37,336 nucleotides of DNA from a virus, in UHGV virus genome UHGV-1375320. One strand, given 5' to 3'. The notes beneath the pieces were generated by a model. It saw only the letters and a program-made list of their open reading frames with translations, was not told the origin of the DNA and searched no databases. The first letter of the stretch is position 1, and each line of letters opens with the position of its first letter. Position numbers and translations under genes: made by a program. Positions 1,359-31,198 of this stretch are shown piece after piece.

Positions 1359-1838
1359 ATGCTTGAGGGAGTATCAAGAGAAGATAAAGCTTTTCTAGTG
1401 CTAAAAGAAATACTAGAAGAGGAGCAACAAGCAAACATTGAAAAATATAAGTTTTTCACAGGTTCATTAGATGACCTAAATATAAAAGTGCTAGATGAAC
1501 TGATGATGTTATCTATCCATGATGGACACATAGTAGGTTATATGGGCTGTATCTATAACATACCACATGACAAAATAATATCATTAGACTTTATTTTTCT
1601 AGGAGATAACCTCACAGAGAGAAAAGAGTTCTTAGATGATTTCGCTAAATTTTGTAGTATGCTTGATAAACTCTATAAAAAAATAGAATTAAATATAGTT
1701 CCAGAAAGTCCAGCATATAAACTGGCTATGAAATTTTTCAAAAGATATAACTTTAGAAAAGTTGGGACTTTTAGAAAAGCAAGAAAAATCCTTGATAAAT
1801 TCTATGATGTAGAAGCATGGGAAAAGGAGGAGAGATAA
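1359..1838 (+). CDS. Hypothetical protein (weak GNAT-fold resemblance)
   Basis: 159 aa. The ATG immediately follows the terS stop and is preceded by a GAGGGGG RBS. IHDGHIVGYMGC...ISLDFIFL and KLAMKFFKRYNFRKVG loosely resemble GNAT beta-strands and the C-terminal helix, but no Q/RxxGxG/A motif is present. Confidence 0.3.
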   Translation: MLEGVSREDKAFLVLKEILEEEQQANIEKYKFFTGSLDDLNIKVLDELMMLSIHDGHIVGYMGCIYNIPHDKIISLDFIFLGDNLTERKEFLDDFAKFCSMLDKLYKKIELNIVPESPAYKLAMKFFKRYNFRKVGTFRKARKILDKFYDVEAWEKEER

Positions 1839-1839
1839 T

Positions 1840-2115
1840 ATAAAATTTAAACCAAATATCCAATTGTTTGGTGGTGGTGGAAATGTATTAGGAGGACTTG
1901 TTGATACCATTACGCTTGGAGCTACTGACTTTAGTGGTACTAAAAAGCAGCAAAAGAGAATGGAAGAGGAACTAAAAAAACAAAGAGAGGCAGAGGCTAA
2001 AAAGCAGCAAGCCGAAAAAGATAAGCAAAGAAACACTGCGATACAATTCCAAGAAAGCCTAAGACAAGGTAATCTAGGACTACTAAAGAAAAGTAGCACC
2101 CAGACAATAGGATAA
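1840..2115 (+). CDS. Small Gly-rich, highly charged protein with an L27-like (Prp-cleavage) N-terminal motif; probable non-canonical start
   Basis: The ORF track starts it at TTG 1864 (MFGGGG...). The same frame upstream encodes I-KFKPNIQLF-GGGG, which matches the N-termini of the scaffold (KFKFNIQLFGG) and capsid protein (GFNIQLFAG). The only in-frame initiation candidate with an RBS (GGAGGAG at 1826-1832, 9-nt spacer) is ATA at 1840. The stop is at 2113-2115. Confidence 0.35.
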   Translation: MKFKPNIQLFGGGGNVLGGLVDTITLGATDFSGTKKQQKRMEEELKKQREAEAKKQQAEKDKQRNTAIQFQESLRQGNLGLLKKSSTQTIG

Positions 2116-2124
2116 GGAGATACT

Positions 2125-3636
2125 ATGGAAGATAGAATTAAAAATCTATTTCGTAGTAGATTCCAGGAGGCACAACAGGAAAGAAATGTAATACTAGCTT
2201 GGTATTTGAAAGCTAGAGCACATTTTCTACCAAGAGAAATTAATTTAAATGGTGTAGACAGTACAGGACTAGCATATGCTACTAAGTTAGCTAACAAGTT
2301 ATCAGCTATGATACTTAATAGTAATCATATCTGGGCTTGGATAGAAACACCAAGGTTTGAAGATATATCAAGAGATGACAAGATTATCTTTAGACACATA
2401 ACAGAAATAGTATTTGATGAGATTCAAGAAAATTCGAACTTTGAAACAGAGAAAGCTGTAATTCTTATGGACTACCTAATAGGAACGGCAGTATTCAAAG
2501 TTAGATTTACTGGTAAAATTGCAAATCCTGTGGAATTTCAACCAGTACCCAATATAAATGTTTATCTTACTAAAAGAAGAGGTAAACAACCTGGAGATAC
2601 ATTCTACAATGCAGGTAAAGTGAGAAAACATCAGATTCTTAATCTTTTTGGAGAAAATGCTTATAACTCTGAAAAGGTTCAAAGAATGTCACAAGATGAT
2701 GAGATAGAGTTGTGGGAAGGCACAATATACGACCAAGAAACTAAAATGTTTCACTATGTAGTATCTACTTCAAATGAGTTTGCAGACGTTTTAGATTATA
2801 GGATAGACACTTACAATCCGTGGATAGTTGCAAGATATGAAAGTATTGGAGATAGTCCATATGGTATAGGACCTTGTGTTAAAGCGATAATGGAGATTGA
2901 GGGGCTAAAAGAAGTTAAAGCTAACATCAGACGTATTGCTAAGAAACAAGCTAGACCAAGTTATCTGGGGTATGGAGAGGCTAAATATATTCAGAACTCA
3001 AGAATAGATGAGCCAGGAGCTATATCTATGATGGGAATGTCGCCAAATCAAAATCAGATAATACCTTTCAACAGGGGAGAGAATGCTAACATGGAGTTCT
3101 TTAATCTTGATATGTACAAAGAACTTTTGAGAGATATATTCTATATCAACATATTTGAAACGGCTCAAAACTTAGACCAGCTAAAGAATGTTACTGCTAC
3201 AACAACACAGCTAGTAACAACAGAGTTCGCTAAGCAAATAGAGCCAACCTATGCACTAATGCAAAGGGAACTTTTAAGAGAGATAGTTATAAAAGTTTTC
3301 CAATGTCTACAAAAGATTAGCATTATAGATATATCTAAAATTAAAGCTTTACAGGAAAACCCAAGATTAAAGATAAGATTCTACAATGCACTAACAATAG
3401 CACAAGACCAAGACGACCTTGAAAGAAATATGTTGTATTTTCAAAATATAGCAAGCACTCTAGGACCTGAAGTTGCAGCAGCTAATATGAACCAAGCAGA
3501 ATACATAAATGCTCAACAAAAAAGGTTTAGAATCAATAACAAAGAGTGGAAATCTGGAGAGGAAACAGAAAAGCAAGTTGAGGAAATGAACGTTATGATA
3601 GCTGCACAACAACAAGGGGGAATGATAGGACAATGA
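2125..3636 (+). CDS. Putative portal protein
   Basis: 503 aa. It has an AAGGAG RBS and sits between terS and scaffold/MCP, which is the canonical portal position. The size matches podoviral/T7-type portals (~500-540 aa). No direct motif confirmation. Confidence 0.45.
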   Translation: MEDRIKNLFRSRFQEAQQERNVILAWYLKARAHFLPREINLNGVDSTGLAYATKLANKLSAMILNSNHIWAWIETPRFEDISRDDKIIFRHITEIVFDEIQENSNFETEKAVILMDYLIGTAVFKVRFTGKIANPVEFQPVPNINVYLTKRRGKQPGDTFYNAGKVRKHQILNLFGENAYNSEKVQRMSQDDEIELWEGTIYDQETKMFHYVVSTSNEFADVLDYRIDTYNPWIVARYESIGDSPYGIGPCVKAIMEIEGLKEVKANIRRIAKKQARPSYLGYGEAKYIQNSRIDEPGAISMMGMSPNQNQIIPFNRGENANMEFFNLDMYKELLRDIFYINIFETAQNLDQLKNVTATTTQLVTTEFAKQIEPTYALMQRELLREIVIKVFQCLQKISIIDISKIKALQENPRLKIRFYNALTIAQDQDDLERNMLYFQNIASTLGPEVAAANMNQAEYINAQQKRFRINNKEWKSGEETEKQVEEMNVMIAAQQQGGMIGQ

Positions 3637-3854
3637 CAGAAGAGAGAAAAGAGTACGAAGAGTTAAAAAGAAGATACAGAGATGATAGAGCTTTAAAAAG
3701 ACTAATCGAACTATACTTAATGCTCGAACTCAATAGAGTTTCTATCATGAACGACAAAGGAGTTGATACAGTAGGAAAAGTGAAGGAAATAACTGGAGTA
3801 AACAGTTTATACATGGAGATATTCACGAAGGAGGTAAAAGAAGAAAATGACTGA
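3633..3854 (+). CDS. Hypothetical small protein
   Basis: 73 aa, charged. It overlaps the portal stop (4 nt) and the scaffold start (8 nt), as expected for translational coupling. Confidence 0.3.
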   Translation: MTEERKEYEELKRRYRDDRALKRLIELYLMLELNRVSIMNDKGVDTVGKVKEITGVNSLYMEIFTKEVKEEND

Positions 3855-4506
3855 TAAAGAAAGATTTAAATTTAATATCCAATTATTTGGGGGAGCAGAG
3901 GGAGGAGATACAGGAGGAGAACCTACACCAAATCCAGAGCCAACAGTAAATACAGGAGCTGGGGGAGAACCACCACAACCAAGTGGAGATAATGGAGCAG
4001 GGGCAGAACCTAAAGTAGAGCCATTAACTTGGGAAGGAATAAAAGCAGAAGATTACCAAGAGATTGGAGATATAGCACCATATATCGCAGAGGCTCAAGA
4101 AAAAGGTTACACTCCAGAGTACATTAAATCAAGACTAGATGATAGAAAAGCTTATCTAGCAGAACAAAAAGCAGCTTTCACTCCAGAACTTAATGCAAGT
4201 ATGGAAGCAATAAACAATTTCATAGGAGCAGAGAAAGACACAGATAGACAGATAGTATATAGAGCTATGGCAGAAAATGCAATAGGAGCTCAAATCCTAA
4301 AGGAATACATAGAAATGAAAGCAGGAAGTACAGGAAGTGTAGTAGGAGTTGGAGCACCAACAGGACAAATGTATACTAGAAAGGAATTTATAGAGGCTTA
4401 CAATAAAGCTAAAGACACAAATGATAATAGATTAATGGATTCATTGAAAACTTATGCAAGAAGCAAAAAAGAAACAGACCCATACTTTTGGGATTTTATA
4501 AACTAA
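3847..4506 (+). CDS. Putative scaffolding protein with Prp-cleavage motif
   Basis: 219 aa. N-terminus MTDKERFKFNIQLF|GGAEGG. A low-complexity Gly/Pro/Glu-rich linker is followed by a helical acidic domain. It lies immediately upstream of the major capsid gene. Composition and size are like the Staphylococcus phage 80alpha scaffold. Confidence 0.55.
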   Translation: MTDKERFKFNIQLFGGAEGGDTGGEPTPNPEPTVNTGAGGEPPQPSGDNGAGAEPKVEPLTWEGIKAEDYQEIGDIAPYIAEAQEKGYTPEYIKSRLDDRKAYLAEQKAAFTPELNASMEAINNFIGAEKDTDRQIVYRAMAENAIGAQILKEYIEMKAGSTGSVVGVGAPTGQMYTRKEFIEAYNKAKDTNDNRLMDSLKTYARSKKETDPYFWDFIN

Positions 4507-4525
4507 GATTTTTAAGGAGGAATAC

Positions 4526-5560
4526 TTGAGAAATGAAAAAACTTTACTAGGAAGCACAGGATTTAATATCCAACTATTTGCTGGAACACCTAACGTAAAT
4601 TTAACAGAGGGAGAACAAGCAAAATATGTCAACAATGTTATAAGAGCAGTAGGAAAACCAGACGCAAAACCATCAGTAGAAAGATATTTTGCTAAATCTG
4701 TATCTACTAATGCTGCTTATTCTTTATTCTATGTTGGAGGAAGATTAACGGCTCGTGATAGAGTTAGCACTGAAAATCAAACAAACAAAAATTTTGATGA
4801 TGTAAAAGGAGTTACTGCAGGAAAACTTATTAAATCTGTAATGGTAATACCAACAGGTATGGAAGTTCCTTTATGGATAGAGAATACAGAGTTCGACAAA
4901 TCTCAATTAAATGAAGAATCTGCTATTCAAGAAATGCAAGTAGACGCAATTTATAATGGTAAAGATAAAAGAATATCTCAACTGTTATATAAAATTGCAA
5001 CTGAAGGAAAAAGAACTGTAAAAAATAGTGCTGGAGTAGAAACAGATTTAACAATTCCAGAAGCTAATAAATTTGGAGATGAAACAAAACTTTTCTCTGA
5101 CCCATATAACTTAAAAGAGTTTAGAAGAGCAGCAAAGAAATTAAAGAAACTTTCTAAAAATGGTAAGCGTTTAAGATGTATGATTATCGGAGAAGATGCA
5201 AGTGTTGAGCTAGATGATGAAGAAAAGTTTACAAATAAAGATTGGGTAACTATAAACGGAAGCACTCCTAATCAAACAGGAGAAACAATAGACATTTTAT
5301 TAGGAGCTAATGTTGAAGAGTTATTTACATTTGATGAAGTATTCTATCCAACAGGTTCAGAAACAACAGGTTATATTATTATGATGGTTGAACAATGTAT
5401 AGGACTAGATGATAAAAAAGCTAGTGTAAACCCAATAATAGAACACGTTTCTTGGAAAAAAGCTTGGTATTTAGACGTTGAAATTTCAAACGCAACAGAA
5501 TTATTAGACCCAGAGGGAATATTAATATTTAAATACAAGAGAGATATTCCAGCGGAATGA
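4526..5560 (+). CDS. Putative major capsid protein with Prp-cleavage motif
   Basis: 344 aa. TTG start 5 nt after AAGGAGG. N-terminus MRNEKTLLGSTGFNIQLF|AGTPN. A strong intrinsic terminator follows the gene, as is typical for a highly expressed MCP. Confidence 0.55.
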   Translation: MRNEKTLLGSTGFNIQLFAGTPNVNLTEGEQAKYVNNVIRAVGKPDAKPSVERYFAKSVSTNAAYSLFYVGGRLTARDRVSTENQTNKNFDDVKGVTAGKLIKSVMVIPTGMEVPLWIENTEFDKSQLNEESAIQEMQVDAIYNGKDKRISQLLYKIATEGKRTVKNSAGVETDLTIPEANKFGDETKLFSDPYNLKEFRRAAKKLKKLSKNGKRLRCMIIGEDASVELDDEEKFTNKDWVTINGSTPNQTGETIDILLGANVEELFTFDEVFYPTGSETTGYIIMMVEQCIGLDDKKASVNPIIEHVSWKKAWYLDVEISNATELLDPEGILIFKYKRDIPAE

Positions 5561-10329: not shown

Positions 10330-11025
10330 ATGATATATGGTTATTGCAGAGTATCTACAAAAAAACAAAATATTTTAAGACAGGTGGAAAATATCATAAA
10401 GATATATTCAACTGCTAAAGTATTTCAAGAAGCATATACAGGAACTACAACAGATAGAAAAGAATGGAGTAAGCTAAAAAAAATGGTTAAACCCGGAGAT
10501 ACAATTATATTTGATTCTGTTAGTAGAATGAGTAGAAATGCAGAAGAGGGAATAAAAGAATATTTTAATTTTGTAGAAAGAGATATTGAACTTATATTTT
10601 TAAAAGAGGGATATATCAATACAGCCCTTTATAAAAAAGCTTTAGAGAATAAAATAGATTCAACAGGAAATAAAATAGCTGATATATACATAGACGCAAC
10701 CAATGAAGTATTGAAGATATTAGCTCAAGAACAAATTAAAATAGCATTTGACCAGGCTGAAAAGGAAGTATTAGACCTTAGAGAAAGAACAAAAGAGGGA
10801 CTAAGAGTTACCAAAGCTAAAGGAACTGTATTAGGTAGAAAACAAGGAGATACTTATACTACCAAGAAAGAAAAGGAGATGAGAGAGAAAATAAAAAAAC
10901 TAGCTAAAGATTTTGGAGGAAATCTTAAAGATATAGAAGTCTTTACACTGCTAGGAATAACTAAGAATACATATTACAAGTATAAGAAAAATATTATATT
11001 AGAGGAGGCACAAAATGAGAAATAA
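10330..11025 (+). CDS. Small serine recombinase (resolvase/invertase family)
   Basis: 231 aa. MIYGYCRVSTKKQ carries the catalytic Ser in the canonical G(Y)xRVST context. The size is typical (~185-230 aa). The C-terminal LLGITKNTYYKYKK is an HTH. It has its own promoter and a long upstream leader. Confidence 0.8.
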   Translation: MIYGYCRVSTKKQNILRQVENIIKIYSTAKVFQEAYTGTTTDRKEWSKLKKMVKPGDTIIFDSVSRMSRNAEEGIKEYFNFVERDIELIFLKEGYINTALYKKALENKIDSTGNKIADIYIDATNEVLKILAQEQIKIAFDQAEKEVLDLRERTKEGLRVTKAKGTVLGRKQGDTYTTKKEKEMREKIKKLAKDFGGNLKDIEVFTLLGITKNTYYKYKKNIILEEAQNEK

Positions 11026-14048: not shown

Positions 14049-16174
14049 TGGCAGGAACATTAATACAACCTTTAAAAATAAATAGACCAAGTGGTAGAGC
14101 AGTACCACAATTAAATATAGCTGCAGATTTTGGAGTAGAGAGAAATGCAGCTACTAAAATAGAGGAACTTTTCCAGAAAAAACAAAAGCAAGACTTAATA
14201 CAAGCAGAAACATTCGGGCAGCAATTTGCTGCCTCTATGTCTAAAATGATATTAGATAGAGATAACCAGGGAAAAATAAATAAAAAATTATTCCATAATT
14301 TTGATTCTTATAACTCTTTAGAAAGTGAAATAAAAGCTAATATAGAGCAATTTAAAAAAGATGGAAAAGAATTAGGAATAGATGATTCTATATTAGAAAA
14401 ATATAGTTCTATGGTAACAGGAGAGCTTGAAAAATCAAATGTAAATTATTTAGTTGAATATAATGACTATAATGAGAAAATTCAAAAAGATGAAGCTAAC
14501 AGAATTATAAGAATGAAAGGAGATAATCTTTCATCAGTTGCTATGCTTGGAGATTATCAAGGAGCAGTACAAGGTTTTTACAATGTAGCTCAAGATTTAG
14601 ATAGAGCAATAGAAGCAGGATATATAGATGGGACAAAAGCTATTGAACTTGCTAGCAAGCAAAGACAAGATATTATAGTAAGTTATGTGTCATCTTTTGT
14701 AAATCAACCAAATGGTAAATCAATTCTTGAAAATATGTCTACTTGGAATACTTCTCAATTTATGGAAAAGTTTTCAGAACTTAACTTTAAAAATGATACA
14801 GGAGAATTTTATTTGACAGTAGATGACTATAACAAATTTCAATCTACTATAACAAGTGGAATTACAAGAATAAATAATAAAGAAAAATTAAATAAGCAAA
14901 ATACTATGGTTGAGAGATTAAAGTATGAACAAAAGAAAAAAACAAACTCTTTAGAAATTGCTTTAACAGAAGACCAAGTGTCAGCAGATGGGTATATTCC
15001 AGAAAGCACACATGTAAAAGCTACATATTACGCACATGGATTGGAGGGTATACCAAATATACCTACCACAATAAATGGACTAATAGAGGCTGGATATAAC
15101 CCACCTTGGAAAGAAAAAGGTTTAAATGATACCACAGAAGTATATAAAAATCCTAATTTAACAGGAGAAGGAATAATGAACTTTAGACAACAAGAAGCTG
15201 AAAGATTAGCTAATGGTTATGGATATGGAGCAGTAAAAAACTTCTATGATACCACAGATGAGAATATAATAGGTGGAAGTATGCTTATGGAAACATACCA
15301 GATGAATACTACCTTTAAAGATGAGTTTGACAAAGTATATAGTTCTGATAACAGAAAAATACTTGCTAATTTTGATAAAGTTCAAATAACTGATTTTTCT
15401 ACTTTAAAAGAATATAATACAGAATTTCAAGGAGTAGATGACCCATATTATGCTACTCCTACAAGTTTTATGTCTGGCCAGGTTAGTAGAAAACCACAAA
15501 AGACAATGTCAATAGCTGCAGGTGGTAAAATAGCTGGACTACAAGTAGCAGCCAATAATGGAAGTTTAGCAGCTACAAGAGCAACTAAAGATATAACTCA
15601 AATAGCAACTGACACACTAATATTAGAGTTGTATTCTAAATATGGTGGTGTAATAACAGATGATTTAGCTGATAAAGGAGGACTAAAAGAAAAATATGTA
15701 GGTCAACCTATAGCTAGTTTAACCCCAGAGCAACAAAGGACTTTCCTTAAAGGAGTTTTAGAAAATGATAAATCAATAAGAGAAACTGTAAATTCCAGGG
15801 TAGAAAATGTAGTTAATGCTATGACAGAGGGGCTAGATACTATTAATTTAGGGAATAATAGAGTTATATTTGCACCTAAAATAATAAAAGAAGAGGAGAG
15901 AACTAACTTTATAACAGGTCAAATAGATAGAGGTTTTGTTGTTAAAGAAAGAGATATAGAAAAAACTCAAAAAGCTATAAATGAAATGATAGCTAAAAAT
16001 ACATATAAAGTTAATTTGAATGGAACTATTAAAGAAATAGGAGATAAGAAAAATATAACTTTTGTACAAGATATAGGGAGCACAAAGGTAAGACTTTTCT
16101 ATGGTATACAACCAGTCTTTACTGATAGTGGATATGCAGTATTTGATATAGAAGAGTTTATTAAGGAGGAATAA
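14048..16174 (+). CDS. Hypothetical large virion protein (size/position parallel T7 gp15 internal core protein)
   Basis: 708 aa, translationally coupled (ATAATGG) to both neighbours. Confidence 0.35.
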   Translation: MAGTLIQPLKINRPSGRAVPQLNIAADFGVERNAATKIEELFQKKQKQDLIQAETFGQQFAASMSKMILDRDNQGKINKKLFHNFDSYNSLESEIKANIEQFKKDGKELGIDDSILEKYSSMVTGELEKSNVNYLVEYNDYNEKIQKDEANRIIRMKGDNLSSVAMLGDYQGAVQGFYNVAQDLDRAIEAGYIDGTKAIELASKQRQDIIVSYVSSFVNQPNGKSILENMSTWNTSQFMEKFSELNFKNDTGEFYLTVDDYNKFQSTITSGITRINNKEKLNKQNTMVERLKYEQKKKTNSLEIALTEDQVSADGYIPESTHVKATYYAHGLEGIPNIPTTINGLIEAGYNPPWKEKGLNDTTEVYKNPNLTGEGIMNFRQQEAERLANGYGYGAVKNFYDTTDENIIGGSMLMETYQMNTTFKDEFDKVYSSDNRKILANFDKVQITDFSTLKEYNTEFQGVDDPYYATPTSFMSGQVSRKPQKTMSIAAGGKIAGLQVAANNGSLAATRATKDITQIATDTLILELYSKYGGVITDDLADKGGLKEKYVGQPIASLTPEQQRTFLKGVLENDKSIRETVNSRVENVVNAMTEGLDTINLGNNRVIFAPKIIKEEERTNFITGQIDRGFVVKERDIEKTQKAINEMIAKNTYKVNLNGTIKEIGDKKNITFVQDIGSTKVRLFYGIQPVFTDSGYAVFDIEEFIKEE

Positions 16175-19100
16175 TGGCAGGACTTGTAACTTATGGTAAT
16201 AAATTATCTTTAGAGGGTAATGATAATGTAATTAAAATAAATAAAGAATATTATGAGGCTAACAAAGAAAATATAGAAAAATTCAACGTTGTAGGTAATA
16301 AAGTATCTTATGATATACCACAATTAGAAATTATAGGAGATATATTATCTAGTTCTAAAAATATTGCAAAATCAACTTACTATAGTTGGTTAGGAGCTGC
16401 ATATAAAAGTGCAACAGGAGAAACAAAACCTATAGATTTTTTAAAAACAGCAGAGGAAAACCATATAAAATATAAAGATTTTGCAAGTAACTTTAAAGAT
16501 AGCTTTAGAAAAAAAATAGAATTAGAACCCAATATAACTCAAAAGTGGGCTATGAGTGCAGGAGCAGAGAGTTTAAGAGTTGCTACTGATGTAAGACAAC
16601 TCCCTGTATTACTTGGGACCACTCTTTTAACTCCGTATGTTGCAGGATATATAGGAGCTACTTCTGTAGCTGGTAGACTTGGAACAACGGCAGTTTTAAA
16701 TGGTATAGAAAATATGGTGCAAGAAAGTGCAGATATTTATATATCAGAGGGTAGAACTCCAGAACTTGATGAGATTATTTATTCTGGAGTTGGTGGAGCT
16801 GGTGCAGGACTTTTATTTGCTGGTCTAGGAATGGGAATAGGTAAGGTAGCTAATAAAATAGAAACTAAGTTTGATAATATAGCAAGAAAAAAGAAATCCC
16901 AAGAAATAATAATAAATCTATTTTCAGAGGCTGATAAAAAAATACAAGAAAGCTCTATATTAAATAATGGAGATATGACTATAAAAGATTTAGAAAATAC
17001 AGTAGGAATAAAAGATAATCTAGGTATTATAAACGAATATAAAGGTTCTCAAGGTAGTGAAAAATTTTTATTTAAGCATTTATATATAAATGATGTTAAT
17101 AAATTTCAAGCTGACTTATATGCTAGGTCTATTGTCTTAAAAATGATAGATGACCCAGATATAGACTTTATCAAAAATGGAGCTGACTTCAACAAAATTT
17201 TAAATGAAAATCCAATTCTTATAAGAAATTTAGCAAAAGAATATATTGATAGTGGAAAACTTGGAGAGGGAGAAAAGAAAGCTTTTGAGTTCTTTTTAGA
17301 CTTAACTAACCCAGACAAGATAACTGATGTAAGAGTTGATGTCCCAGGAATGATGGAAGAGGTTGATAAAAATCTTAATGGCAACGATAGTGGGTATGAA
17401 CCTTTATTTGAAGATATGAAAGTACAACATCATATAGTTGATAGTGAAACTTTTGAAAGAAAAAAAAGAAAAATAAAGCATAATTATAAAGACTTTCCCA
17501 AAGGGACATTACAAGCAAACCTTGAAAAAGATGGAATTATTCCACCAGGTGCAAATGTTAAGTATGTAAGAGGAGCTATTGAGAAAACACCATATCAAGA
17601 CTTGGTACATATTACAGAACATGGAACTCCAATTACTAGAAAAAAATGGTTAAAGGGAGATGCCCATATCAACTTTGAATATGAAATAGATGGTAAGAAA
17701 TATTATGGAGATTATAGACTTACAGAGCAATATGGATATTTAGGAGATACATATGAGCTTGATATTAACGCAGCACCAGGAACACAAAAAAATATAACAC
17801 CCCAAAGAAAAGTAACTAATATAGTAGATGATATGAATGGAACTCCAGAACCAATAAAACCTATTAGTGTTGAAGAGATGAGGAGCATAGTATATAAAGA
17901 ATTAGGACTAGATAAAACTTTTGGAGAACTAGGACAGAAACAACTTACAGAAGAGTTGGTTTATAGTTACAGTAAAAAAGTAGGGGAAGTTATAAGAAAA
18001 AAATATAATATAAATTCCCTGGAAGAAATGGCAGATTTTTATAAAAAAAGATATGGAATATACTTTAAATTTAAAGGATTTGCAGACTTAAAAGGAGCTA
18101 AAGGGGAAACTATAATAAGAAAAGCTAGAGGAACAAACGAACTTATAGGAGATATAGAAATATTTATTAGTAACAATATTCCAGATTTAGAAACACAATT
18201 AGGAGTGATGAGGCACGAATTACAACATGTATTTGACTTTTACAAAAACCCAGAATTTAAAAGTCAGCCATTTTTCACACCTGTTATATTTGCTAATAGT
18301 GAAGTAGGGGATAGATTAAATAGACTTGGTCGTGGACACTTTGCAGATTTTCCAGAGGAATATTTTGAACTATCGTATCTTATAAAAAATAAGTTAGATA
18401 ACTTAATAAATGGAGAAAAACTTGATAACGAAATAGTAGAAGTATTAAAACTTGAATTACCAAAAACAGTAGGTAAAGAAGATATAGAAGTATATAAAAG
18501 TATGCTAAAGGCAGCTCAAACAGAAAGCGACCCAGCAAAAGCAGTAGCAGAGCTTAGAAAAAGTTTTAGTAAGTATGCTAAGTGGAAAAATGATATACCA
18601 GAGATATTTTGGAAAGCTAAAGACGTTGGACAAGCTTCATCACTTATGAGTGAATATCTTGAAACAAATTTATTTATTCCATACGAGAAAACTAAGCAAC
18701 AAATGGAAGGCATGCTAACTAATGCTTTCAATATAACTTATAAAGGCGAGAAATTAAATCCAGATAAATTAATAAGTTTATTTGAAGAGAATGGAGAAAA
18801 TCTAACTCATTATCTATTTAGATGGAATTATAAAAGTTTACCAGATAGCTTAAAAGAGCTTGAACCAGAGATACTAAAATTAAGAGAAGAGTTTTATAGC
18901 ACTATGAAAGAATTGACAAATGGTTATGAGATAACAGTAGATGACATTGTCAATAATTTTATGTTTGACCATAACCTAAGTGCAGAAAAATATATAAGAC
19001 AAGAAGATATATTGAAATATTTAGGAGATGATAAAAAGGTTGATTTAGATAAATTTATAAGAGGAGATTTGAGTTATGATAATTTAGTAGAACTTAATAT

Positions 19101-21087
19101 CCCAGAAAGATTGCTTACTATAAGAAATGCTTTTGCAGAAGATAATTTAGAGTTCTTTGAATCAGCACCAGAAACTTTAATTAATAATCTTAAAGGAAAG
19201 AATAAAGCTCCTAAAGAAAAAATTATAAAATTAATGGCTAAAGCTAATGAGTGTATGAGTTCATCAGATAAGAAAACACTTGTTAAAAAATATAAACTTG
19301 AGGGAATACCACAAATAAAAGAATTTATTGAAAAATCAGACTTTTACAAAGAGGTAGATACTAACCTTATAGCTCAAAATATACTAGAAAGTAGAAAAAA
19401 TAATGCAAAATATTTTTATACTATGGATATGATGAGTAAGAAAGGAAGTTATAAAAATAAATTTCTTGGAGGGCATCTTCATAGATTTGGTAGATTTGAT
19501 GACTTTATTAATGGAGAAAAAATTATAAAAAGAAAAAATCTAACAAGACTTGTAAATAAAAACAAGACTTCTGATAGAACAGCTATCAGAAGATTTATAA
19601 GAGAAATTTCAGTAGCTAAAGCCATTAAAGATAATTTACCAGGACATGGAATGAAGGGTATAGAAAGAATCTTGAATGAAACTCAAAGAAAAACTGCAAA
19701 TGATACTTATAAAACTTTAGTTAGAGCCATTGAGAAAAAAATAGATGATAGGATAGGAATGGATTTAGGAAGAATTACAAAACCTCCAAAAACAATAGCA
19801 GACAAAGCTATCACTAACCTTTTAAGTTATAGTAATAAAGTTAGTTTAACAGGGCTTAAATTTACAAAGGACTTTATATTTGAAGCACCAACAATGGCAA
19901 GGGCTAGCACTATGTTATATAATTCAGCAGGTATTACTGAAACTTATAAAAATTTTTTAAAGGCTGCACAAGTACTATATTTAAGCAAAGAAATGTTTGA
20001 TAAATATGATAAAGCTTTAGGAAGCAGATTTGAATATTCAGTACCTTTAAAATTTTTCAATTCTATTATGGATAAGGCAGATGATGTAACAGGAGAGATA
20101 GCAGAAAGGATAAATAAGTATGGTAGTAAATGGGAAAAGATAATTAGTGGAATAGACACAGGACTTAATAAATTAAATTTTTATGGAGAGAGCCAAAAGG
20201 TTATGAAACTTGCAGCTTTTTTTGAGGGTGCAGAGATTTTAAGAAATATGAGTAAATTTCAAGACTTAGATGATTTATTTAAAAACAATACTGCCTATAT
20301 GAAAAATTTATTTAAAAATGTAGGTATAGATGATTTAGACTTTTATTTCATAAAAAAATTAAAAGATATTCCAGAATTTAATGAGTTAGGTGTATTTAAT
20401 GAAGTTGACTTATTTGATTTTATAAATAAATCAGAAGTAGAAAAACAATTAGGAAGAGTTCTATACAATGAAGAATTTGACTTAATAAGAAAAAATATTA
20501 CTGAAAAAATAACTAAGTTACATGACAAAATAGTTACTGATATTTCACCTACTGAAACCAACGCTTCTATGAGAGCTGTCATTGAAAATATTGAAAATCC
20601 TATCCACAGAAATTTTATGAGGTTGATGGGAAACTTCAAAACTTCTATACAAGAACAGTGGAGAAGATTGGGAAGAGATTTATACACCTCTAATATAGTA
20701 GATGGGCATTTCGATTGGGGTAATAAGATATGGCAAAAAAGATTATTCAAACATATCTTAGGAGTAACAGGACTATATGGAGGACTAGCACTTGTAACCG
20801 ACTTAGATTTTTACACTGACCCAATAGCAACTATCAATGAAAAAATAGATGATTTAATAGATAGTCCAGGTAGTGCATTTTGGGAAGTACTAGATTCTCA
20901 AATAAACTCTTGGGCTTTAGTTAATGGTTCAGCAGTAGCAAGAAGACCTATACAGATAGCTCAAAATTTATCTAAAGGAGATTTTGAAAAAGCTGGAGCA
21001 AATATTTTAAAACTAGGACTAGGTACCTCAAATGTTAATATGGCTAAAACAGGATATGGTTTAGCAGAAAAAATAGTAGGAGAATAA
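16174..21087 (+). CDS. Giant virion protein (1637 aa) with an HExxH zincin-like motif and a Gly-rich hydrophobic segment; candidate ejection/internal-core protein or tape-measure analogue
   Basis: Uninterrupted 4.9-kb ORF. MRHELQHVFDF is an HExxH motif, with downstream Glu candidates in NSEVGDR/FPEEYFEL. GVGGAGAGLLFAGLGMGIGKV is a membrane-active Gly-zipper-like stretch. It is the last gene before a strong terminator and parallels T7 gp16 by position and size. Confidence 0.45.
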   Translation: MAGLVTYGNKLSLEGNDNVIKINKEYYEANKENIEKFNVVGNKVSYDIPQLEIIGDILSSSKNIAKSTYYSWLGAAYKSATGETKPIDFLKTAEENHIKYKDFASNFKDSFRKKIELEPNITQKWAMSAGAESLRVATDVRQLPVLLGTTLLTPYVAGYIGATSVAGRLGTTAVLNGIENMVQESADIYISEGRTPELDEIIYSGVGGAGAGLLFAGLGMGIGKVANKIETKFDNIARKKKSQEIIINLFSEADKKIQESSILNNGDMTIKDLENTVGIKDNLGIINEYKGSQGSEKFLFKHLYINDVNKFQADLYARSIVLKMIDDPDIDFIKNGADFNKILNENPILIRNLAKEYIDSGKLGEGEKKAFEFFLDLTNPDKITDVRVDVPGMMEEVDKNLNGNDSGYEPLFEDMKVQHHIVDSETFERKKRKIKHNYKDFPKGTLQANLEKDGIIPPGANVKYVRGAIEKTPYQDLVHITEHGTPITRKKWLKGDAHINFEYEIDGKKYYGDYRLTEQYGYLGDTYELDINAAPGTQKNITPQRKVTNIVDDMNGTPEPIKPISVEEMRSIVYKELGLDKTFGELGQKQLTEELVYSYSKKVGEVIRKKYNINSLEEMADFYKKRYGIYFKFKGFADLKGAKGETIIRKARGTNELIGDIEIFISNNIPDLETQLGVMRHELQHVFDFYKNPEFKSQPFFTPVIFANSEVGDRLNRLGRGHFADFPEEYFELSYLIKNKLDNLINGEKLDNEIVEVLKLELPKTVGKEDIEVYKSMLKAAQTESDPAKAVAELRKSFSKYAKWKNDIPEIFWKAKDVGQASSLMSEYLETNLFIPYEKTKQQMEGMLTNAFNITYKGEKLNPDKLISLFEENGENLTHYLFRWNYKSLPDSLKELEPEILKLREEFYSTMKELTNGYEITVDDIVNNFMFDHNLSAEKYIRQEDILKYLGDDKKVDLDKFIRGDLSYDNLVELNIPERLLTIRNAFAEDNLEFFESAPETLINNLKGKNKAPKEKIIKLMAKANECMSSSDKKTLVKKYKLEGIPQIKEFIEKSDFYKEVDTNLIAQNILESRKNNAKYFYTMDMMSKKGSYKNKFLGGHLHRFGRFDDFINGEKIIKRKNLTRLVNKNKTSDRTAIRRFIREISVAKAIKDNLPGHGMKGIERILNETQRKTANDTYKTLVRAIEKKIDDRIGMDLGRITKPPKTIADKAITNLLSYSNKVSLTGLKFTKDFIFEAPTMARASTMLYNSAGITETYKNFLKAAQVLYLSKEMFDKYDKALGSRFEYSVPLKFFNSIMDKADDVTGEIAERINKYGSKWEKIISGIDTGLNKLNFYGESQKVMKLAAFFEGAEILRNMSKFQDLDDLFKNNTAYMKNLFKNVGIDDLDFYFIKKLKDIPEFNELGVFNEVDLFDFINKSEVEKQLGRVLYNEEFDLIRKNITEKITKLHDKIVTDISPTETNASMRAVIENIENPIHRNFMRLMGNFKTSIQEQWRRLGRDLYTSNIVDGHFDWGNKIWQKRLFKHILGVTGLYGGLALVTDLDFYTDPIATINEKIDDLIDSPGSAFWEVLDSQINSWALVNGSAVARRPIQIAQNLSKGDFEKAGANILKLGLGTSNVNMAKTGYGLAEKIVGE

Positions 21088-21504: not shown

Positions 21505-23016
21505 TTGAATTTTTTAGGAAGAGCAGCAAAAAGAAGAGTAACTATCAGTTATAAAAAAGTTATTAAATATCTACACAAAGGACAGAAAGAACTTCTGGAC
21601 AATGTCCTGGAAAATAAGAAAAAGTATTTTGCACTAATGGCTCATAGAAGATATGGTAAGGACTTTATTTCATTACTCATTATGATACTAGCTGCAATAC
21701 AACACCCAGGAAACTACTATATCTATGCACCATACTTTAGACAGGTAAAAGAAATAGTTGTAGATGGGAAAACGTTAAACGGTTTACCTTTACTTGAAAA
21801 TCTTATACCAGATGAAATACTAGCAAATCCAAGAGGACCTAAAGTTAATAAATCAGATTGGAGTGTAACTTTATTTAATGGAGCTAAAATCTTCTTTCGT
21901 GGAGGAGATAACCCAGACGCAAGTGTAGGAGTAGGAGCTAGAGGAGTTATTTACACAGAGGCAGCACTTATAAAAGAAAAGTTCTATCAATATATGAAAC
22001 CTGCAGTTGATATGGTTATCAATAACACAGACTTTGGTTTTGTAATATTTATCTCTACACCAAGGGGTAGATATAATTGGTTTACTAAACTTTTTATAGA
22101 TTACTTCACTATCCTAAGTAAACCAGAAAATAAAGAAATTAAAGATATGTGGTATGTAGATATTCAATCTGGAAAAGATTCTTTGAACTACAAAGGGGAG
22201 AGGGTAATAAATGATAAAGAACTTAGAAAACAAGCTCTTACTATGGACCCAGATTCATACGCTCAAGAGTGGGAATGTAAAATCAATACTCATCTAGTTG
22301 GTGCTTGGTATGGAGAACAACTAAAAAAAGCTTATGAAGATGAAAGGATAAAGTTTTATGGTAGGTATGAAGAGTTATTAGATAGTGTAAGTAGAAGATA
22401 TACTCAAATATACACAGGGCATTTCTGGACACAACAACCTTTATATGTTGCTTGGGATATAGGAAAAAGGGACCATACAGTATTGTGGTTTTTTCAAAAG
22501 AACCCTCACAATAATAGAATTAGATTTATAAAACATTATAGAGTTATTGGGCAAGGACCAGACCACTGCTGCCAATATATAAAAAAATGGTGCAAAGATA
22601 ATGGGTACTATATGCAGCCTACTATGGTACTACCACATGATGGAGATGTCGAGGAATGGAGTGCAACTTCAAAAAGAAGTGACTACATAAGATTAAATTA
22701 TTTTAGTGATGTAAGAACTCTATCTAAGACAGAGCTAGCTAAAAATGATATGACTACATTAATAAATCAAATCAACTATATAAGAAAGGAGTTTGAAAAT
22801 GTAGAGATAGATAATAACGAGTGTAACATAGGGGTTATACAATTAGGAGGCTACGTCAAAAAATATAACAAGTCCATGAACTGTTACTTAGATATACCAG
22901 ACCACGACGCAAATGATAAAGCTTCTGATGACGCAGATTCATTTAGAACTGCTATGATATTTGCTAGCATATATCTAAAAGATAGTTTTGATGGACCACT
23001 AACAACTTATTATTAA
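21505..23016 (+). CDS. terL: Terminase large subunit
   Basis: 503 aa. TTG start 7 nt after GGAGG. A degenerate Walker [11 protein letters not shown], of the G/A-R-R-x-GK-S/T/D type common in phage TerL. The C-terminal half has acidic nuclease-like residues ([22 protein letters not shown]). The size is typical. Confidence 0.6.
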
Positions 23017-23024
23017 GAAAAGAG

Positions 23025-24404
23025 GTGTTTAAGCAAATGTTAAATTTTAAAAAAGAGTATTTTAAGTTAGAAGAGAATAGACAACAATATACTACTAGCT
23101 TTTCAGACTTAATGACAAGTTGTGAAGTTTACGGAAAAAAACAAAATCCTATAACTAGCACAGCTTTTATATTCCTTATACCTAAAGATTATTACACATA
23201 CAATGCTGGAAACATTGATTTTACTAACTACCCAGATGGCATATGGAATGATTACACAGATATTAAGATAGTTAAGTCTGAACCTTATTTTGATTTAGAT
23301 TTTACTTTTAGTAGTACAGGAGATATTACACCAGAAAATCTAAATAATATGTTTACTAAAATAAAAGCTGCAATACTTGGAACAGAAAAAGAAATTATAA
23401 AATCTCAATTATTTGTAGATAGTGGAATACCAAAACAATTAGGTTTACCAGATTTACCAAAAGGTTCTATCTGGTATATGTCAGATGATGGGATAGCTAC
23501 TTATCCTGTAACTACACTATTTGAGAAATATCAAGAGTTGCTCAATAAGATTTATGAAGATACAAAAAAAATATTACTTGAAGATTTGGATAATAGAGTA
23601 AAAGAGCTAGTTATTCAATTAGAAAAAGATTTAAAAGAAATTATTGATAATTATCTTAAAACAGATAGTTATTTAAAATTAGATAAATATACACAAGAAA
23701 AAATAGAAGAAGCAGAAAAAGAAATCCAAGATTATATAGACTATCATATGCAAGATTTAAAAGGAGAAAGAGGGTACTCAATAGCAAGTGTTGGTTTTAA
23801 TAAAGAATTACCAGAAGGAAACGTCTATACAGTCTACCGTGAAGACGGAGAAATTATAGGAGAATTATTAGCACGAAGAGGTCCTCAAGGTATTCAAGGC
23901 AATGATGGACCAGAAGGACCGAAAGGAGAAAGAGGAGAAAGAGGATTCAAAGGAGATAAAGGGGACCAAGGAGAAAGAGGGGAAAATGGACCTCAAGGTA
24001 TTCAAGGAGAGCAAGGAATACAAGGAGAAGTTGGACCTCAAGGTCCTCAAGGAATAACAGGTCCTCAAGGTATTCAAGGAATACAAGGAGAACAAGGTAT
24101 TCAAGGAGAAAGAGGACTTCAAGGACTAAAAGGCGAACAAGGCGTTCAAGGAATACAAGGAGAACAAGGACCTAAGGGAGAGCAGGGAGATATCGGACCT
24201 CAAGGTCCTCAAGGAATACAAGGTCCTAAAGGAGATAAGGGAGATAAAGGAGATAATGGAACTGCTGTAATTACTCCTATAAATAGTCAGTACATATTCC
24301 AAATAGAAGATGGAAACTTAGTTGTGTATTATAACGAGAATGATACTCAACCAAATTTTTCAATAGATGAAGATGGAAATTTAGTATTAGAAATTTTAGA
24401 ATAA
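23025..24404 (+). CDS. Collagen-like repeat protein, putative tail fibre
   Basis: 459 aa. About 125 residues of perfect G-X-Y triplets ([19 protein letters not shown]...[10 protein letters not shown]). It lies downstream of terL and next to a second collagen-like fibre gene. Confidence 0.65.
23878..24262 (+). repeat. Collagen G-X-Y coding repeat tract (fibre gene 1)
   Basis: Iterated 9-nt-periodic units ggtcctcaaggtattcaagga and ggagaacaaggaatacaagga. Several 20-40 nt stretches are shared verbatim with fibre gene 2. Confidence 0.85.
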
Positions 24405-24417
24405 GGAGGTTTTAATT

Positions 24418-25530
24418 ATGCCAAAATTAATTATAGGTAATGTTGTAGGTCCTCAAGGTCCTAAAGGAGAACAAGGAGATATCGGACCTCAAGGTCCTAA
24501 AGGAGAACAAGGAATACAAGGGGAACAAGGTATTCAAGGTTTACCTGGTGCAAAAGGAGAACAAGGAATACAAGGTCCTCAAGGTCCTAAAGGAGATACT
24601 GGAGAGCAGGGTATTCAAGGTCCTAAAGGAGATAAGGGAGATACTGGACCACAAGGTCCTCGAGGTCCTCAAGGTATTCAAGGACCTAAGGGAGACAAAG
24701 GGGAACAAGGTATAACTGGAAATACTGGTCCTAAAGGTCCTAAAGGAGATACTGGAGAGCAGGGTATTCAAGGTCCTAAAGGAGCTGATGGAGTAGGAGT
24801 AAAAAGTATAACATTTAAGAATACTAATGAAGATGGTGGAAATGTTTATACTGTGACTTTAACTAATGGTAGCACATATGATTTTACTGCCCCTAGAGGT
24901 CAACAAGGGATACCAGGACAAAGCGGTCAACCTGGGACTACCGATTATGAAAAATTAATAAACAAACCAGATGTATATACTAAAACTGAAACTAATAATT
25001 TATTAGATGGTAAATTAGGTAAAGAAGATAAAGCGAAGAGTGCTACAACTGCTGATAGTGCTGGTGCTTGTACAGGGAACTCTGCTACTGCTACAAAATT
25101 ACAAACTGCTAGAACTATCAACGGAGTTAGTTATGATGGTAGTGCCGATATTACAATAGCTGATAATACAAAACTTCCAAAATCCGGTGGTACTATTAAT
25201 GGAAACTTAACAGTAATAGGAGCTATTGTTTCAAACGGAGAAGTTACGGCTTATTCAGATAGAAGATTAAAAACTGATATAACAAAGATAACTAATGCTC
25301 TTAAAAAAGTAAATCAAATCAATGGGTACACATTCACTATGTTAGGTACAGGGCAAAGACAAGCTGGAGTTATAGCTCAAGAAATCGAGAAAGTATTACC
25401 AGAAGTTGTAGTTCAAAATGAGGATAACGGGTATCTAACAGTAGCATATGGAAATATAGTAGCTTTATTAATAGAAGCTATTAAAGAGTTGAGTAATGAA
25501 GTTAAAGAATTAAAAGGGGGTAGGGTATAA
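24418..25530 (+). CDS. Collagen-like tail fibre with C-terminal intramolecular chaperone (peptidase S74) domain
   Basis: 370 aa. G-X-Y tract at residues ~10-125. C-terminal [12 protein letters not shown]...[20 protein letters not shown] matches the S74 auto-cleaving chaperone signature (SD.RLK.NI ... G.IAQE....PE) found on phage fibres and endosialidases. Confidence 0.7.
24448..24795 (+). repeat. Collagen G-X-Y coding repeat tract (fibre gene 2)
   Basis: Same repeat family as 23878-24262. For example, ggagaacaaggagatatcggacctcaaggtcct occurs in both genes. Confidence 0.85.
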
Positions 25531-26812: not shown

Positions 26813-27217
26813 ATGTATAAATTTAGTGAAAGAAGTTTAAAACACTTAGAAGAGTGTGATGATAGATTAATATTAATAGCAAGCCAAGCTATAAAAAGAA
26901 TAGACTTCTCTATAATAGATGGAGCTAGAACAGAGGAAGAGGCAAAGGAAAATCAAGCTAAGGGAACTAGCTGGACAAACAAAAGTAAGCATTGTAAAAA
27001 ACCTAAATCATATGCTTTTGATTTTATTCCATACCCATTTAAAGATTGGAACGACTTAGAGGGATTTAAAAAAGTTGCTGATGTCTTAAAAGAAGAGGCT
27101 GAAAAACTTGGTATTAAAGTTAGATGGGGTGGAGATTGGAATATGAATGGCAAGTATGATGATGAGATAGCTAGAGGGTCATATGATGGAGGACATTTTG
27201 AGTTAATGGAAGATTAA
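26813..27217 (+). CDS. Endolysin, peptidase M15 family (L-alanyl-D-glutamate peptidase type)
   Basis: 134 aa. Zn ligand triad context SKHCKK (His), AFDF (Asp) and GGHFEL (His). The hallmark WGGDW...DxxHFEL motif of phage M15 endolysins such as T5 Lys is present. No signal peptide. Confidence 0.7.
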   Translation: MYKFSERSLKHLEECDDRLILIASQAIKRIDFSIIDGARTEEEAKENQAKGTSWTNKSKHCKKPKSYAFDFIPYPFKDWNDLEGFKKVADVLKEEAEKLGIKVRWGGDWNMNGKYDDEIARGSYDGGHFELMED

Positions 27218-27230
27218 GGGAAGTGATAAC

Positions 27231-27482
27231 TTGAATATTATAGGTTCAGTAATAGAAGTTATAAAAGATACTCTAGGTATAATCTTTAAAAGGACTAGAA
27301 ATGCCGAGGTAGACCAAGAGATAGAAAAGCAAAAACTAACAAGTTTTAACTATTACCTTGGTACTGCCTTTATGATAATACTTTTATTGCTTATATTAGA
27401 TAATATCTTAAATTTACAAATAACACCTTGGTTTTACAACATTTTCGAAAAGATACTAGACTATATGATAGGAGGAAATTAA
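27231..27482 (+). CDS. Small membrane protein (lysis-cassette associated)
   Basis: 83 aa with one strong TM helix, LGTAFMIILLLLILDNILNL. Sandwiched between the endolysin and the holin. Confidence 0.35.
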   Translation: MNIIGSVIEVIKDTLGIIFKRTRNAEVDQEIEKQKLTSFNYYLGTAFMIILLLLILDNILNLQITPWFYNIFEKILDYMIGGN

Positions 27483-27937
27483 TGGGAGATTTTACTAGAA
27501 TAGTAACAGATTTCTTTTGGTTGTTGGTTGATGTAATAAAAATTTTAAGTAATTGTGTAGCAATAGGAATAGGAAGTTTAGTAGCCTTTATCTTTATGAT
27601 TACAGGTGGGCAAGATGAAGCTTTAAGAATATTACTTATACTTATGGCAGTTGATTATATATCTGGAGTTATCAAAGCTTATATTACTTGTACTGCTAAT
27701 AGTAAACTAGGTATAATAGGAATGTTAAAAAAGGTTATGATAATTCTAGTTATAGTATTAGCTTATCATCTGGACATACTACTTGGTAGTAAATTAGGAA
27801 TAAAGACTTTAACAATAGGAGTTTTTATTTCAAATGAGGGACTTTCTATATTAGAAAATGCAAGTATCTGTGGAGTGCCTATTCCAGAGAAAATAAAAAA
27901 AGTATTAGTTCAATATCAAGAGTATAAGAAAAAATAA
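27482..27937 (+). CDS. Holin, TcdE/phage_holin_4_1 family
   Basis: The start was moved to the ATG at 27482 (GGAGG RBS 5 nt upstream); the ORF track start at 27428 lacks an RBS. 151 aa with 3 TM segments. ...AVDYISGVIKAY...SKLGIIGMLKKV...FISNEGLSILENASICGVPIPEKI matches the TcdE-type holin signature. Confidence 0.6.
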   Translation: MGDFTRIVTDFFWLLVDVIKILSNCVAIGIGSLVAFIFMITGGQDEALRILLILMAVDYISGVIKAYITCTANSKLGIIGMLKKVMIILVIVLAYHLDILLGSKLGIKTLTIGVFISNEGLSILENASICGVPIPEKIKKVLVQYQEYKKK

Positions 27938-30717: not shown

Positions 30718-30806
30718 GTCTTACCCCCTTTTCACTCTGATATAATTTTAACTTATATTTTCTTTTTATACAACATTTTTTTATTTTTTTTCACACTATT
30801 AATAAA

Positions 30807-30943
30807 CTGACAAAACTTCACACTATTGACAAAACTTCACACTATTCTGACAAAACTTCACAGTATAGTCTGACAAAACTTCACACTATACCCCTCTATT
30901 TCTGACAAAACTTCACACTATTCTGACAAAACTTCACAGTATC
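30807..30943. repeat. Iteron array (six direct repeats of ~21 bp), putative oriV/Rep binding sites
   Basis: CTGACAAAACTTCACACTATT at 30807, 30828, 30848 (ACAGTAT variant), 30871, 30903 and 30924, spaced 20-23 bp with one 32-bp gap. A seventh diverged copy lies at 31056-31075 (TGACAAAACTTCGTGGTATT). The array is flanked by an AT-rich TAAACT-repeat stretch at 30975-31045. Confidence 0.7.
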
Positions 30944-31198
30944 TTGTTTCTAGCTCTCTAAAATTAAGAGCTGGAGAGGACTGTAAACTCTATAAACTAT
31001 TATAAACTATATTATATATAAACTCTCTAAACTATTTTAGAGATTTTTTTATTTTTGACAAAACTTCGTGGTATTATAATTTTAAAAAGATATTGACTTA
31101 TACCCAAAAGTATATTATACTACTGTATCCAAATTTTTAACCCCATATAAGATGCTTTTTTTAATCGTCATATGTTATTCGAGATTCTTTAATAAAAG

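Follow-up and report, generated by a model that had tools for sequence, protein, structure and literature searches.

In Staphylococcus phage 80alpha the capsid protein (gp47) and the scaffold protein (gp46) are both processed by Prp, a protease of the host, and a Prp-type motif is likewise on record for the phage 80 capsid protein and the phi13 major tail protein (PMC5744158). The published consensus for the N-terminal sequence of ribosomal protein L27, whose extension is cut by Prp, is MLxx(D/N)LQ(F/L)F'A(S/H)KK, with NLQ(F/L)F|A as the usual Firmicute core, and the structure of Prp requires a small residue at P1' (PMC9405229). The L27 of Fusobacterium nucleatum begins MQFLFNIQLF'AHKK (Table 2 of PMC9405229) and the L27 leader of F. 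animalis, in which prp is a core gene, reads LFNIQLFAHKK (PMC12341114); both species possess Prp (PMC9405229, PMC12341114). Here we describe UHGV-1375320, a virus genome of 37,336 bp (the whole stretch of DNA analysed, referred to below as the window), in which three proteins of the head module appear to be made with leaders of the Fusobacterium type, and in which the gene for the smallest of the three most likely starts at an AUA codon.

The window resembles 80alpha in that the leaders of its scaffold-like and capsid proteins mimic host L27, ending ...N-(L/I)-Q-(F/L)-F| before a small residue, and in that no phage prohead protease is found. In 80alpha the cleavage has been attributed to the host ribosomal protease, whereas in the window phage it is predicted from sequence. 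Unlike 80alpha, the window carries the Fusobacterium motif FNIQLF and not the Firmicute NLQFF; its head genes form a T7-type, podovirus-like module on a plasmid-replicon prophage, whereas 80alpha is an HK97-like siphovirus; it has a candidate third substrate, a small portal-adjacent protein whose leader was gained by a 9-codon insertion; and a close relative, L017, encodes its own Prp. With the Fusobacterium bL27 precursor the phage leaders share the P6-P1 residues F-N-I-Q-L-F, and the 10-amino-acid length of the bL27 leader is that of the small-protein leader. The phage P1'-P2' residues are GG or AG, however, rather than AH, and the proteins concerned are phage structural proteins rather than a ribosomal one.

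Natural non-canonical start codons are known in bacteria, among them the AUU codons of infC and pcnB, and near-cognate initiation has been measured at AUA, AUC, AUU and CUG. The start described here is like those of infC and pcnB in its third-position mismatch with the initiator tRNA, its good Shine-Dalgarno (SD) sequence and its conservation, and a reduced or regulated output would be expected from it. It differs from them in that the codon is AUA, in that the gene is a phage structural gene, and in its fused or abutting upstream stop (AUAA, AUAG or UAA-N-AUA), which suggests termination-coupled reinitiation rather than IF3 autoregulation. The encoded protein may be compared with gp6.7 and gp7.3, small virion proteins encoded upstream of the portal in T7; the protein of the window is likewise small, charged and of low complexity, and its gene directly precedes a portal gene of the T7 type, but the T7 proteins are not known to have a cleaved leader and no significant sequence similarity was demonstrated.

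An L27-type motif near the N-termini of three head-module proteins

Translated in six frames, the window contains the pattern N-I-Q-L-F-[G/A] at exactly three sites (1855-1869, 3874-3888 and 4565-4579), as against a mean of 0.007 per mononucleotide shuffle over 300 shuffles. A looser motif pattern likewise gave 3 occurrences against 0.07 expected. All three copies lie near the N-terminus of a head-module protein: a small Gly-rich, Lys/Glu-rich protein encoded directly 5' of the portal gene (1840-2115, + strand; 91 amino acids counted from ATA), a scaffold-like protein (3847-4506, + strand; 219 amino acids) and the major capsid protein (4526-5560, + strand; 344 amino acids, TTG start). The respective leaders are 10, 14 and 18 residues long. 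The scaffold-like leader MTDKERFKFNIQLF (3847-3888) has a predicted cleavage site F|GG and the capsid leader MRNEKTLLGSTGFNIQLF (4526-4579) a predicted site F|AG. In the small protein, the nine codons that follow the putative start encode the leader K-F-K-P-N-I-Q-L-F (1843-1869, + strand), with a predicted cut after F (1867-1869) that would leave GGGGNVLGGLVDT... as the mature N-terminus. As in known Prp substrates, the motif lies within about the first 10-30 residues and combines a core of the form (D/N)-(L/I)-Q-(F/L)-F with a small P1' residue (A, S or G).

More distant relatives (the L-numbered genomes) were recovered via the small protein and the portal; eight distinct variants with a leader-bearing small protein are referred to as the window clade. 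Among capsid homologs (43-99% identity), 34 of 37 keep N-[IV]-Q-[LIM]-F|[AG], and the leader that precedes it varies freely, both in length (11-27 amino acids) and in sequence. Scaffold orthologs keep the motif as well, in the forms NIQLF|A/G and NIQIF|A, with NIRLF|D in L017. In L018, L020 and L021, whose capsid is of a different type (N-terminus M..QAIQDSYDS...), neither the capsid nor the scaffold protein carried an L27-type motif. The leader thus travels with one capsid family, indicating module exchange within this phage group. Judged by these alignments, the motif is under strong selection.

A Prp-family protease as the likely processing enzyme

The scaffold-like and capsid leaders both end in F-N-I-Q-L-F, an exact P6-P1 match to Fusobacterium L27, followed by Gly or Ala at P1'; in the small protein the residue before N-I-Q-L-F is Pro, as opposed to Phe in the other two. 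Pfam and PHROGs scans of essentially all open reading frames (ORFs) found no prohead protease or Prp in the window, and a tblastn search of the window with the Prp of a relative gave no match. Since the genome is without a prp gene, the cutting enzyme would most likely be the host's essential ribosomal protease Prp (MEROPS C108). The relative L017, whose portal is 56% identical, does encode a Prp (L017:9991-10386), 1.5 kb downstream of its capsid gene. This protein matches PF04327 (E=1.9e-26) and the S. aureus Prp structures 4PEO/7KLD (E=5.6e-10) and retains the catalytic His/Asp/Cys in GHA...DIxCAG, which ties the phage group to Prp chemistry. Prp homologs are also borne by known phages (phrog_4478; Lactococcus phages TP712 and PLgT-1). 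The unusual scaffold motif of L017 may reflect an altered specificity.

A first-pass annotation of the window had proposed that three capsid-module proteins share a motif resembling the L27 extension cut by Prp, and that no prohead protease gene is present, in keeping with a dependence on host Prp. The sharing of the motif is borne out, both by three occurrences where 0.007 were expected and by conservation in homologs, although its placement 8-20 residues from the N-terminus has to be corrected to leaders of 10, 14 and 18 residues. The likeness to an L27/Prp-type leader also stands, but as the Fusobacterium variant FNIQLF and not as the generic NLQFF. We confirm the lack of a prohead protease gene by Pfam, PHROGs and tblastn searches of the window. 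Dependence on host Prp is plausible for the window genome and fails for the phage group as a whole, since L017 carries its own enzyme.

The leaders are in our view best read as cut by a protease of the Prp family, in this phage probably that of the host. Three head-module proteins would be made with short leaders that copy L27 and end in (F/P)-N-I-Q-L-F, and a Prp-family cysteine protease would cut after the Phe of each. The predicted mature N-termini are GGGGN... for the small protein, GGAEGG... for the scaffold-like protein and AGTPN... for the capsid protein.

AUA as the probable start codon of the small gene

The frame of the small gene is open from 1813, after a TAG at 1810-1812, and reads K H G K R R R D N I(ATA 1840) K F K P N I Q L(TTG 1864) F G G G G, with no ATG, GTG or TTG between 1813 and 1864. 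An SD sequence, GGAGGAG (within AAAAGGAGGAGAG; 1826-1832, + strand), serves the ATA at 1840-1842 (+ strand), the putative initiation codon, with a gap of 7 nucleotides from GGAGGAG or 9 when counted from its GGAGG core. A single nucleotide separates this ATA from TAA 1836-1838, with which the upstream gene ends.

All of 11 distinct sequences, which represent four lineages (portal identity 42-100%), have ATA at this place; they comprise the eight window-clade variants together with L017, L020 and L022. Seven near-identical IMG/VR genomes keep it too, one of them with a synonymous ATC-to-ATT change inside the motif. In the leaderless genes an SD precedes the ATA, and the sequence reads GGAGGTGGGAGA ATA GGA AGT in L017, ATA GGA AGT in L020 and ATA AGT TCA in L022, where an in-frame TGA stands two codons upstream of the ATA. 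The homologous codon is ATG in L018 and L029-L032 (ATG GGA AGT) and in L019, and TTG in L021. Neither ATT nor ATC is ever seen at this position, though the Ile codon inside NIQLF varies between ATC and ATT; the triplet therefore behaves as a start codon and not as an ordinary Ile codon.

A literal GGAGG precedes the ATA by 7-10 nucleotides in the window clade and L017 (spacers of 7, 9 or 10 nucleotides), and an SD-like AGGAG or GAGGTG precedes it by 7-13 nucleotides in L020 and L022. Insertions and deletions in the spacer between SD and ATA break the frame upstream of the ATA and not downstream of it, which argues that there is no coding constraint upstream. The upstream stop abuts or overlaps the ATA, as TAA/TAG-N-ATA (offset -4) or as ATAA/ATAG (+1), with an offset of +8 in L011, and this overlap parallels the ATGA junction of the portal gene and the 73-amino-acid ORF behind it. 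Downstream of the ATA, the window clade has seven alternative codons that are synonymous and one conservative L-to-M change in the N-I-Q-L-F-G-G core. Since the substitutions upstream of TTG 1864 are biased towards synonymous ones, that stretch is translated. TTG 1864 itself is not conserved, being CTG in L013 and ATG in L010. A scan of the window for further near-cognate starts that combine an SD with a long ORF and have no canonical start close by left 1840 as the sole candidate.

ATA 1840 is thus most likely the start of the small gene. That no canonical start precedes the motif, and that ATA 1840 is the only start served by an SD, had been stated in the first-pass annotation, and both our reading of the frame and the conservation of ATA in 11 of 11 sequences uphold it. 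That annotation left the choice between rare AUA initiation and recoding; the former is retained and the latter dropped, because the frame offset to the upstream gene differs between lineages. Initiation at TTG 1864, which it had named among the outcomes that would overturn its proposal, is not borne out, given the CTG of L013 and upstream codons that evolve as coding sequence.

With AAGGAGG 9 nucleotides upstream and a stop codon adjoining, the initiator tRNA probably reads the AUA in SD-driven or termination-coupled (re)initiation. Such a start would likely lower the yield, which would suit a minor protein. Of the starts annotated in bacteria, 0.004-0.024% are AUA or similar non-canonical triplets, and AUA was comparable to AUG in vitro on infA mRNA (PMC5499595). 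Together with the activity measured in E. coli, which is weighed below, the infA data indicate that AUA initiation is feasible and dependent on context.

Gene finders called no gene at the small-gene locus in L017 (4723-5001), L020 (5659-6001) or L022 (2662-2966), leaving a gap of ~300 bp, and most window-clade gene calls truncate the protein to MFGGGG... from the TTG. The small gene is systematically mis-annotated in public gene calls. In L015 (9536-9814) and L016 the homologous start position holds ACG, with no ATA or ATG, and the upstream gene runs past its usual stop; here either this ACG or an upstream ATG lacking an SD may serve as the start of the small gene.

A leader inserted behind an older start

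In an alignment of the small proteins, the leader appears as a clean insertion of nine residues right after the start, relative to L015 and L017-L022. In leaderless orthologs, such as that of L020 (MGSAGKVLGGLVDT...), it is residue 2 that lines up with the predicted mature end GGGGNVLGGLVDT.... This match indicates that the leader is an add-on, expected to be removed, and younger than the AUA start. In the window clade, a cassette of nine leader codons was inserted directly behind that old start. Since the leaderless L017, L020 and L022 also use ATA, the AUA start is independent of the leader; on the comparative evidence it is not tied to the motif but is an older feature of the small gene.

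The C-terminus of the small protein is conserved as F(Q/Y)ESLRQGNLGLLK..QTIG, and the gene lies upstream of the portal in every relative examined. Its PHROG matches are weak (E=1e-3 to 1e-5), with compositional bias probably contributing, and are to phrog_26964, phrog_3112 ('virion structural protein') and phrog_805 ('internal virion protein'). Its position upstream of the portal and these weak matches lead us to regard the small protein as a probable minor protein of the virion or of its assembly.

Gene content and probable host

The head module lies on the + strand of the window, which has 30% GC. It is preceded by the 159-amino-acid upstream gene (1359-1838, + strand), taken from the ORF list, whose orthologs in L008, L010 and L012 have a weak GNAT-like match to Pfam Acetyltransf_4. 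Behind the small gene follow the T7-type portal gene (2125-3636, + strand; 503 amino acids; PF12236 Head-tail_con, E=8e-29; phrog_332, E=7e-39) and the 73-amino-acid ORF between the portal and scaffold-like genes (3633-3854, + strand), defined from the ORF list and the sequence. An ORF of 69-98 amino acids occupies the same place in those relatives whose contig reaches beyond the portal gene. The scaffold-like gene lies between the portal and capsid genes, as gp9 does in T7; Pfam and PHROG scans of its product found no family match, so that we keep to 'scaffold-like', a label given by position and composition. The capsid protein matches PF19821 Phage_capsid_2 (E=1e-6) and phrog_3437 (major head protein). 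Its TTG start is kept in the window-clade relatives, L015 and L022, and is replaced by ATG in L017 and L019. The portal stop and the start of the 73-amino-acid ORF overlap as ATGA (3633-3636). Tight translational coupling runs through the whole head module.

Further genes match T7-like PHROGs for tail proteins (phrog_394 and phrog_376) and an internal virion protein (phrog_418), and TerL (phrog_2) is encoded at 21505-23016. The portal, tail tubular and internal virion proteins occur in the canonical order of a T7-type head/tail module. A 1637-amino-acid protein (16174-21087) is without a family match and may be a T7 gp16-like internal virion protein. It is followed by two collagen-repeat fibre proteins (23025-25530), one of which has a Peptidase_S74 intramolecular chaperone domain.

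The window also encodes a Rep3 initiator (Rep3_N + Rep3_C; 29758-30717, - strand) with 6-7 iterons TGACAAAACTTCACACTAT at 30805-31074, ParA (28952-29761, - strand), a resolvase and a CI/S24 repressor, the plasmid-type maintenance module comprising 28952-31074 plus 10330-11025 and 34760-35416. As plasmid replication and partition genes and lysogeny genes stand alongside a full virion module, the element is a temperate phage; it looks like a phage-plasmid and not like an integrating prophage. Related contigs measure 37.0-37.8 kb, an indication that the window represents the whole genome. Searches of cultured phages with the head-region DNA and protein and with the small protein gave no match, and a megablast of 25 kb against plasmids (PLSDB) returned nothing similar. 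The portal matched only at ~23% identity, to marine podoviruses and one Legionella plasmid, and the phage therefore has no annotated close relative. No tRNA genes or Rfam families were found in the window.

The host is probably a member of the Fusobacteriota, as judged from the identity of the motif, the GC content, Rep3 and the endolysin. The seven best Rep3 matches listed are all to Fusobacteriota plasmids (Fusobacterium varium, Cetobacterium and Leptotrichia). The endolysin (26813-27217) is a T5-type L-Ala-D-Glu (L-alanyl-D-glutamate) peptidase with its best matches in phages of Gram-negative hosts, and the holin next to it (27428-27937) is of a type common in Firmicutes phages. The combination of a Gram-negative-type endolysin with a Firmicutes-type holin fits a host in the Fusobacteriota, and the endolysin fits a diderm with a Firmicute-like ribosome. 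The similarity of ParA carried no taxonomic signal. A scan of a species-representative genome collection with a single portal sequence gave no match; a scan with a portal alignment gave the match that is considered below.

Alternative explanations

Other starts for the small gene have to be weighed against AUA. Most database entries (P0001-3, P0006, P0009-11) call the protein from TTG 1864 (MFGGGG...), a legitimate start codon that the capsid gene also uses, and KFKPNIQ would on that reading be untranslated and a chance likeness or a relic. That codon is CTG in L013, however, and no SD precedes TTG 1864, the SD being placed 7-10 nucleotides before the ATA. The eight preceding codons vary synonymously (AAT/AAC, ATC/ATT, CAA/CAG) with N-I-Q invariant, and the same motif stands on two neighbouring proteins where 0.007 is expected per genome; a start at TTG 1864 seems to us highly improbable. 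The frame could also be entered from upstream, by a +1 frameshift from the GNAT-like gene near its AGA-TAA, by readthrough of TAG 1810 or from an upstream ATG-ATG. An SD-like GGAGG does stand just before the stop of the upstream gene, resembling the arrangement in prfB, and five relatives (L008, L010, L012, L013 and L014) are open back to an in-frame ATG, for which gene callers gave products of 98-103 amino acids (P0004, P0005, P0007, P0008). Yet the stop-to-ATA offset is -4, +1 or +8 depending on the lineage, so the frame relation between the two genes differs and a conserved frameshift is excluded, and AGA-to-GAU re-pairing is impossible. The upstream ATG-ATG arises from conserved Y-D-V codons of the upstream protein and is without an SD; in the window and in L011 a TAG cuts off its frame, which turns solely on whether Val is encoded by GTA or GTG. 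L022 has a TGA two codons before the ATA. The indels between SD and ATA likewise reveal no coding constraint in that frame. The prfB-like frameshift, readthrough and upstream-ATG readings were rejected on these comparative grounds (offsets, TAG, the L022 TGA and indels), and we give them very little credence. It is also conceivable that the ATA is a decayed ATG in a gene that has fallen silent or is on the way to loss. Lowered expression through ATG-to-ATA mutation is known, for example in rpoS, and sister lineages do have ATG. Against this, the ATA persists in four lineages with portal identities of 42-100%, the ORF is intact, the C-terminus is strongly conserved and substitutions are biased towards synonymous ones, where a decaying gene would gather stops and indels. 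Decay is accordingly hard to credit, and AUA initiation at 1840 is retained.

For the leaders, the motif might be real and translated without being a substrate of host Prp, serving as an uncleaved assembly or targeting signal, such as one that brings proteins together at the portal or procapsid, or being cut by a phage protease that has escaped recognition. Proteolysis is not normally part of the maturation of T7-type heads, and several ORFs of the window belong to no assigned family. For assembly of 80alpha the scaffold leader is needed, while cleavage of scaffold and capsid is not needed for viability (PMC5744158), so a leader may act uncut. What is conserved, however, is exactly the P5-P1 recognition core plus a small P1' residue and nothing else of the leader; the Fusobacterium L27 leader has an identical core; L017 carries prp close to its head genes; and leaderless small-protein orthologs begin at the predicted mature end. 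We consider a role other than as a Prp substrate unlikely, and less easily set aside than the alternative starts.

Besides this dispensability of cleavage and the upstream ATG of the five relatives, several observations weigh against the account that we favour. The scaffold motif of L017, KLNIRLF|DG, breaks the rule at P3 and P1'. In E. coli the activity of AUA in vivo is 1-2% of that of AUG, making it a poor start there (PMC5499595). The identity of Rep3 to the Fusobacteriota plasmids is merely 23-29%, and the sole match in the portal-alignment scan of the species-representative genome collection came from a distant relative, as a contig of 6.6 kb that had been binned into a metagenome-assembled genome of Faecalimonas. 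We give this binning little weight as evidence of the host; the L27 motif expected in the family of Faecalimonas differs from the NIQLF motif. What we infer here, and have not observed, is the cleavage, which protease carries it out, the host, how efficient AUA is, and that the small protein is a virion component. With these points taken into account, we still think it likely that three L27-type leaders are cut by (host) Prp in a probable Fusobacteriota phage-plasmid, that the small gene starts at AUA 1840 and that its leader was inserted behind that AUA.

Discussion

Prp-type leaders on capsid and scaffold proteins are already known from 80alpha. What is new here is the Fusobacterium-type motif, the T7-type head module on a phage-plasmid, a predicted third substrate that arose by leader insertion, a relative with its own Prp, and a deeply conserved AUA fused to an upstream stop. 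The Prp part bears out what was a reasonable supposition; the AUA start is the more unusual finding and, as far as sequence comparison can carry it, a well supported one. For natural, conserved initiation at AUA in a bacterial virus it ranks among the strongest comparative examples, and it belongs to a gene that public gene calls truncate or omit.

A broader synthesis is possible, and as a whole we offer it tentatively and think it rather doubtful. The AUA would be a selected start that works via stop-start fusion (AUAA, AUAG or UAA-N-AUA), with reinitiating ribosomes giving a fixed low dose of a portal-associated minor protein, and such starts would form a class of sites that gene finders systematically overlook in low-GC phages. 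The L27-mimic leader of nine codons would act as a portable cassette, one that can be placed behind a start codon and so bring further virion proteins to Prp, and widespread use of Prp by phages in Fusobacterium would then contribute to positive selection on F. animalis Prp. Sites in the substrate pocket of F. animalis Prp are reported to be under positive selection (PMC12341114); that phage exploitation of Prp could be one driver of this selection is speculation on our part.

Our reading predicts three cleavage sites and one start site. Since the phage leaders copy the host's variant of L27, such leaders could serve as a signal for host prediction. Fusobacterium is a clinically important genus with few characterised phages, and the three proteins offer a model substrate set for Fusobacterium Prp, a proposed antibiotic target. 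The finding would extend the processing of head proteins by (host) Prp-family proteases from staphylococcal siphoviruses to uncultured T7-type phage-plasmids, probably of Fusobacterium.

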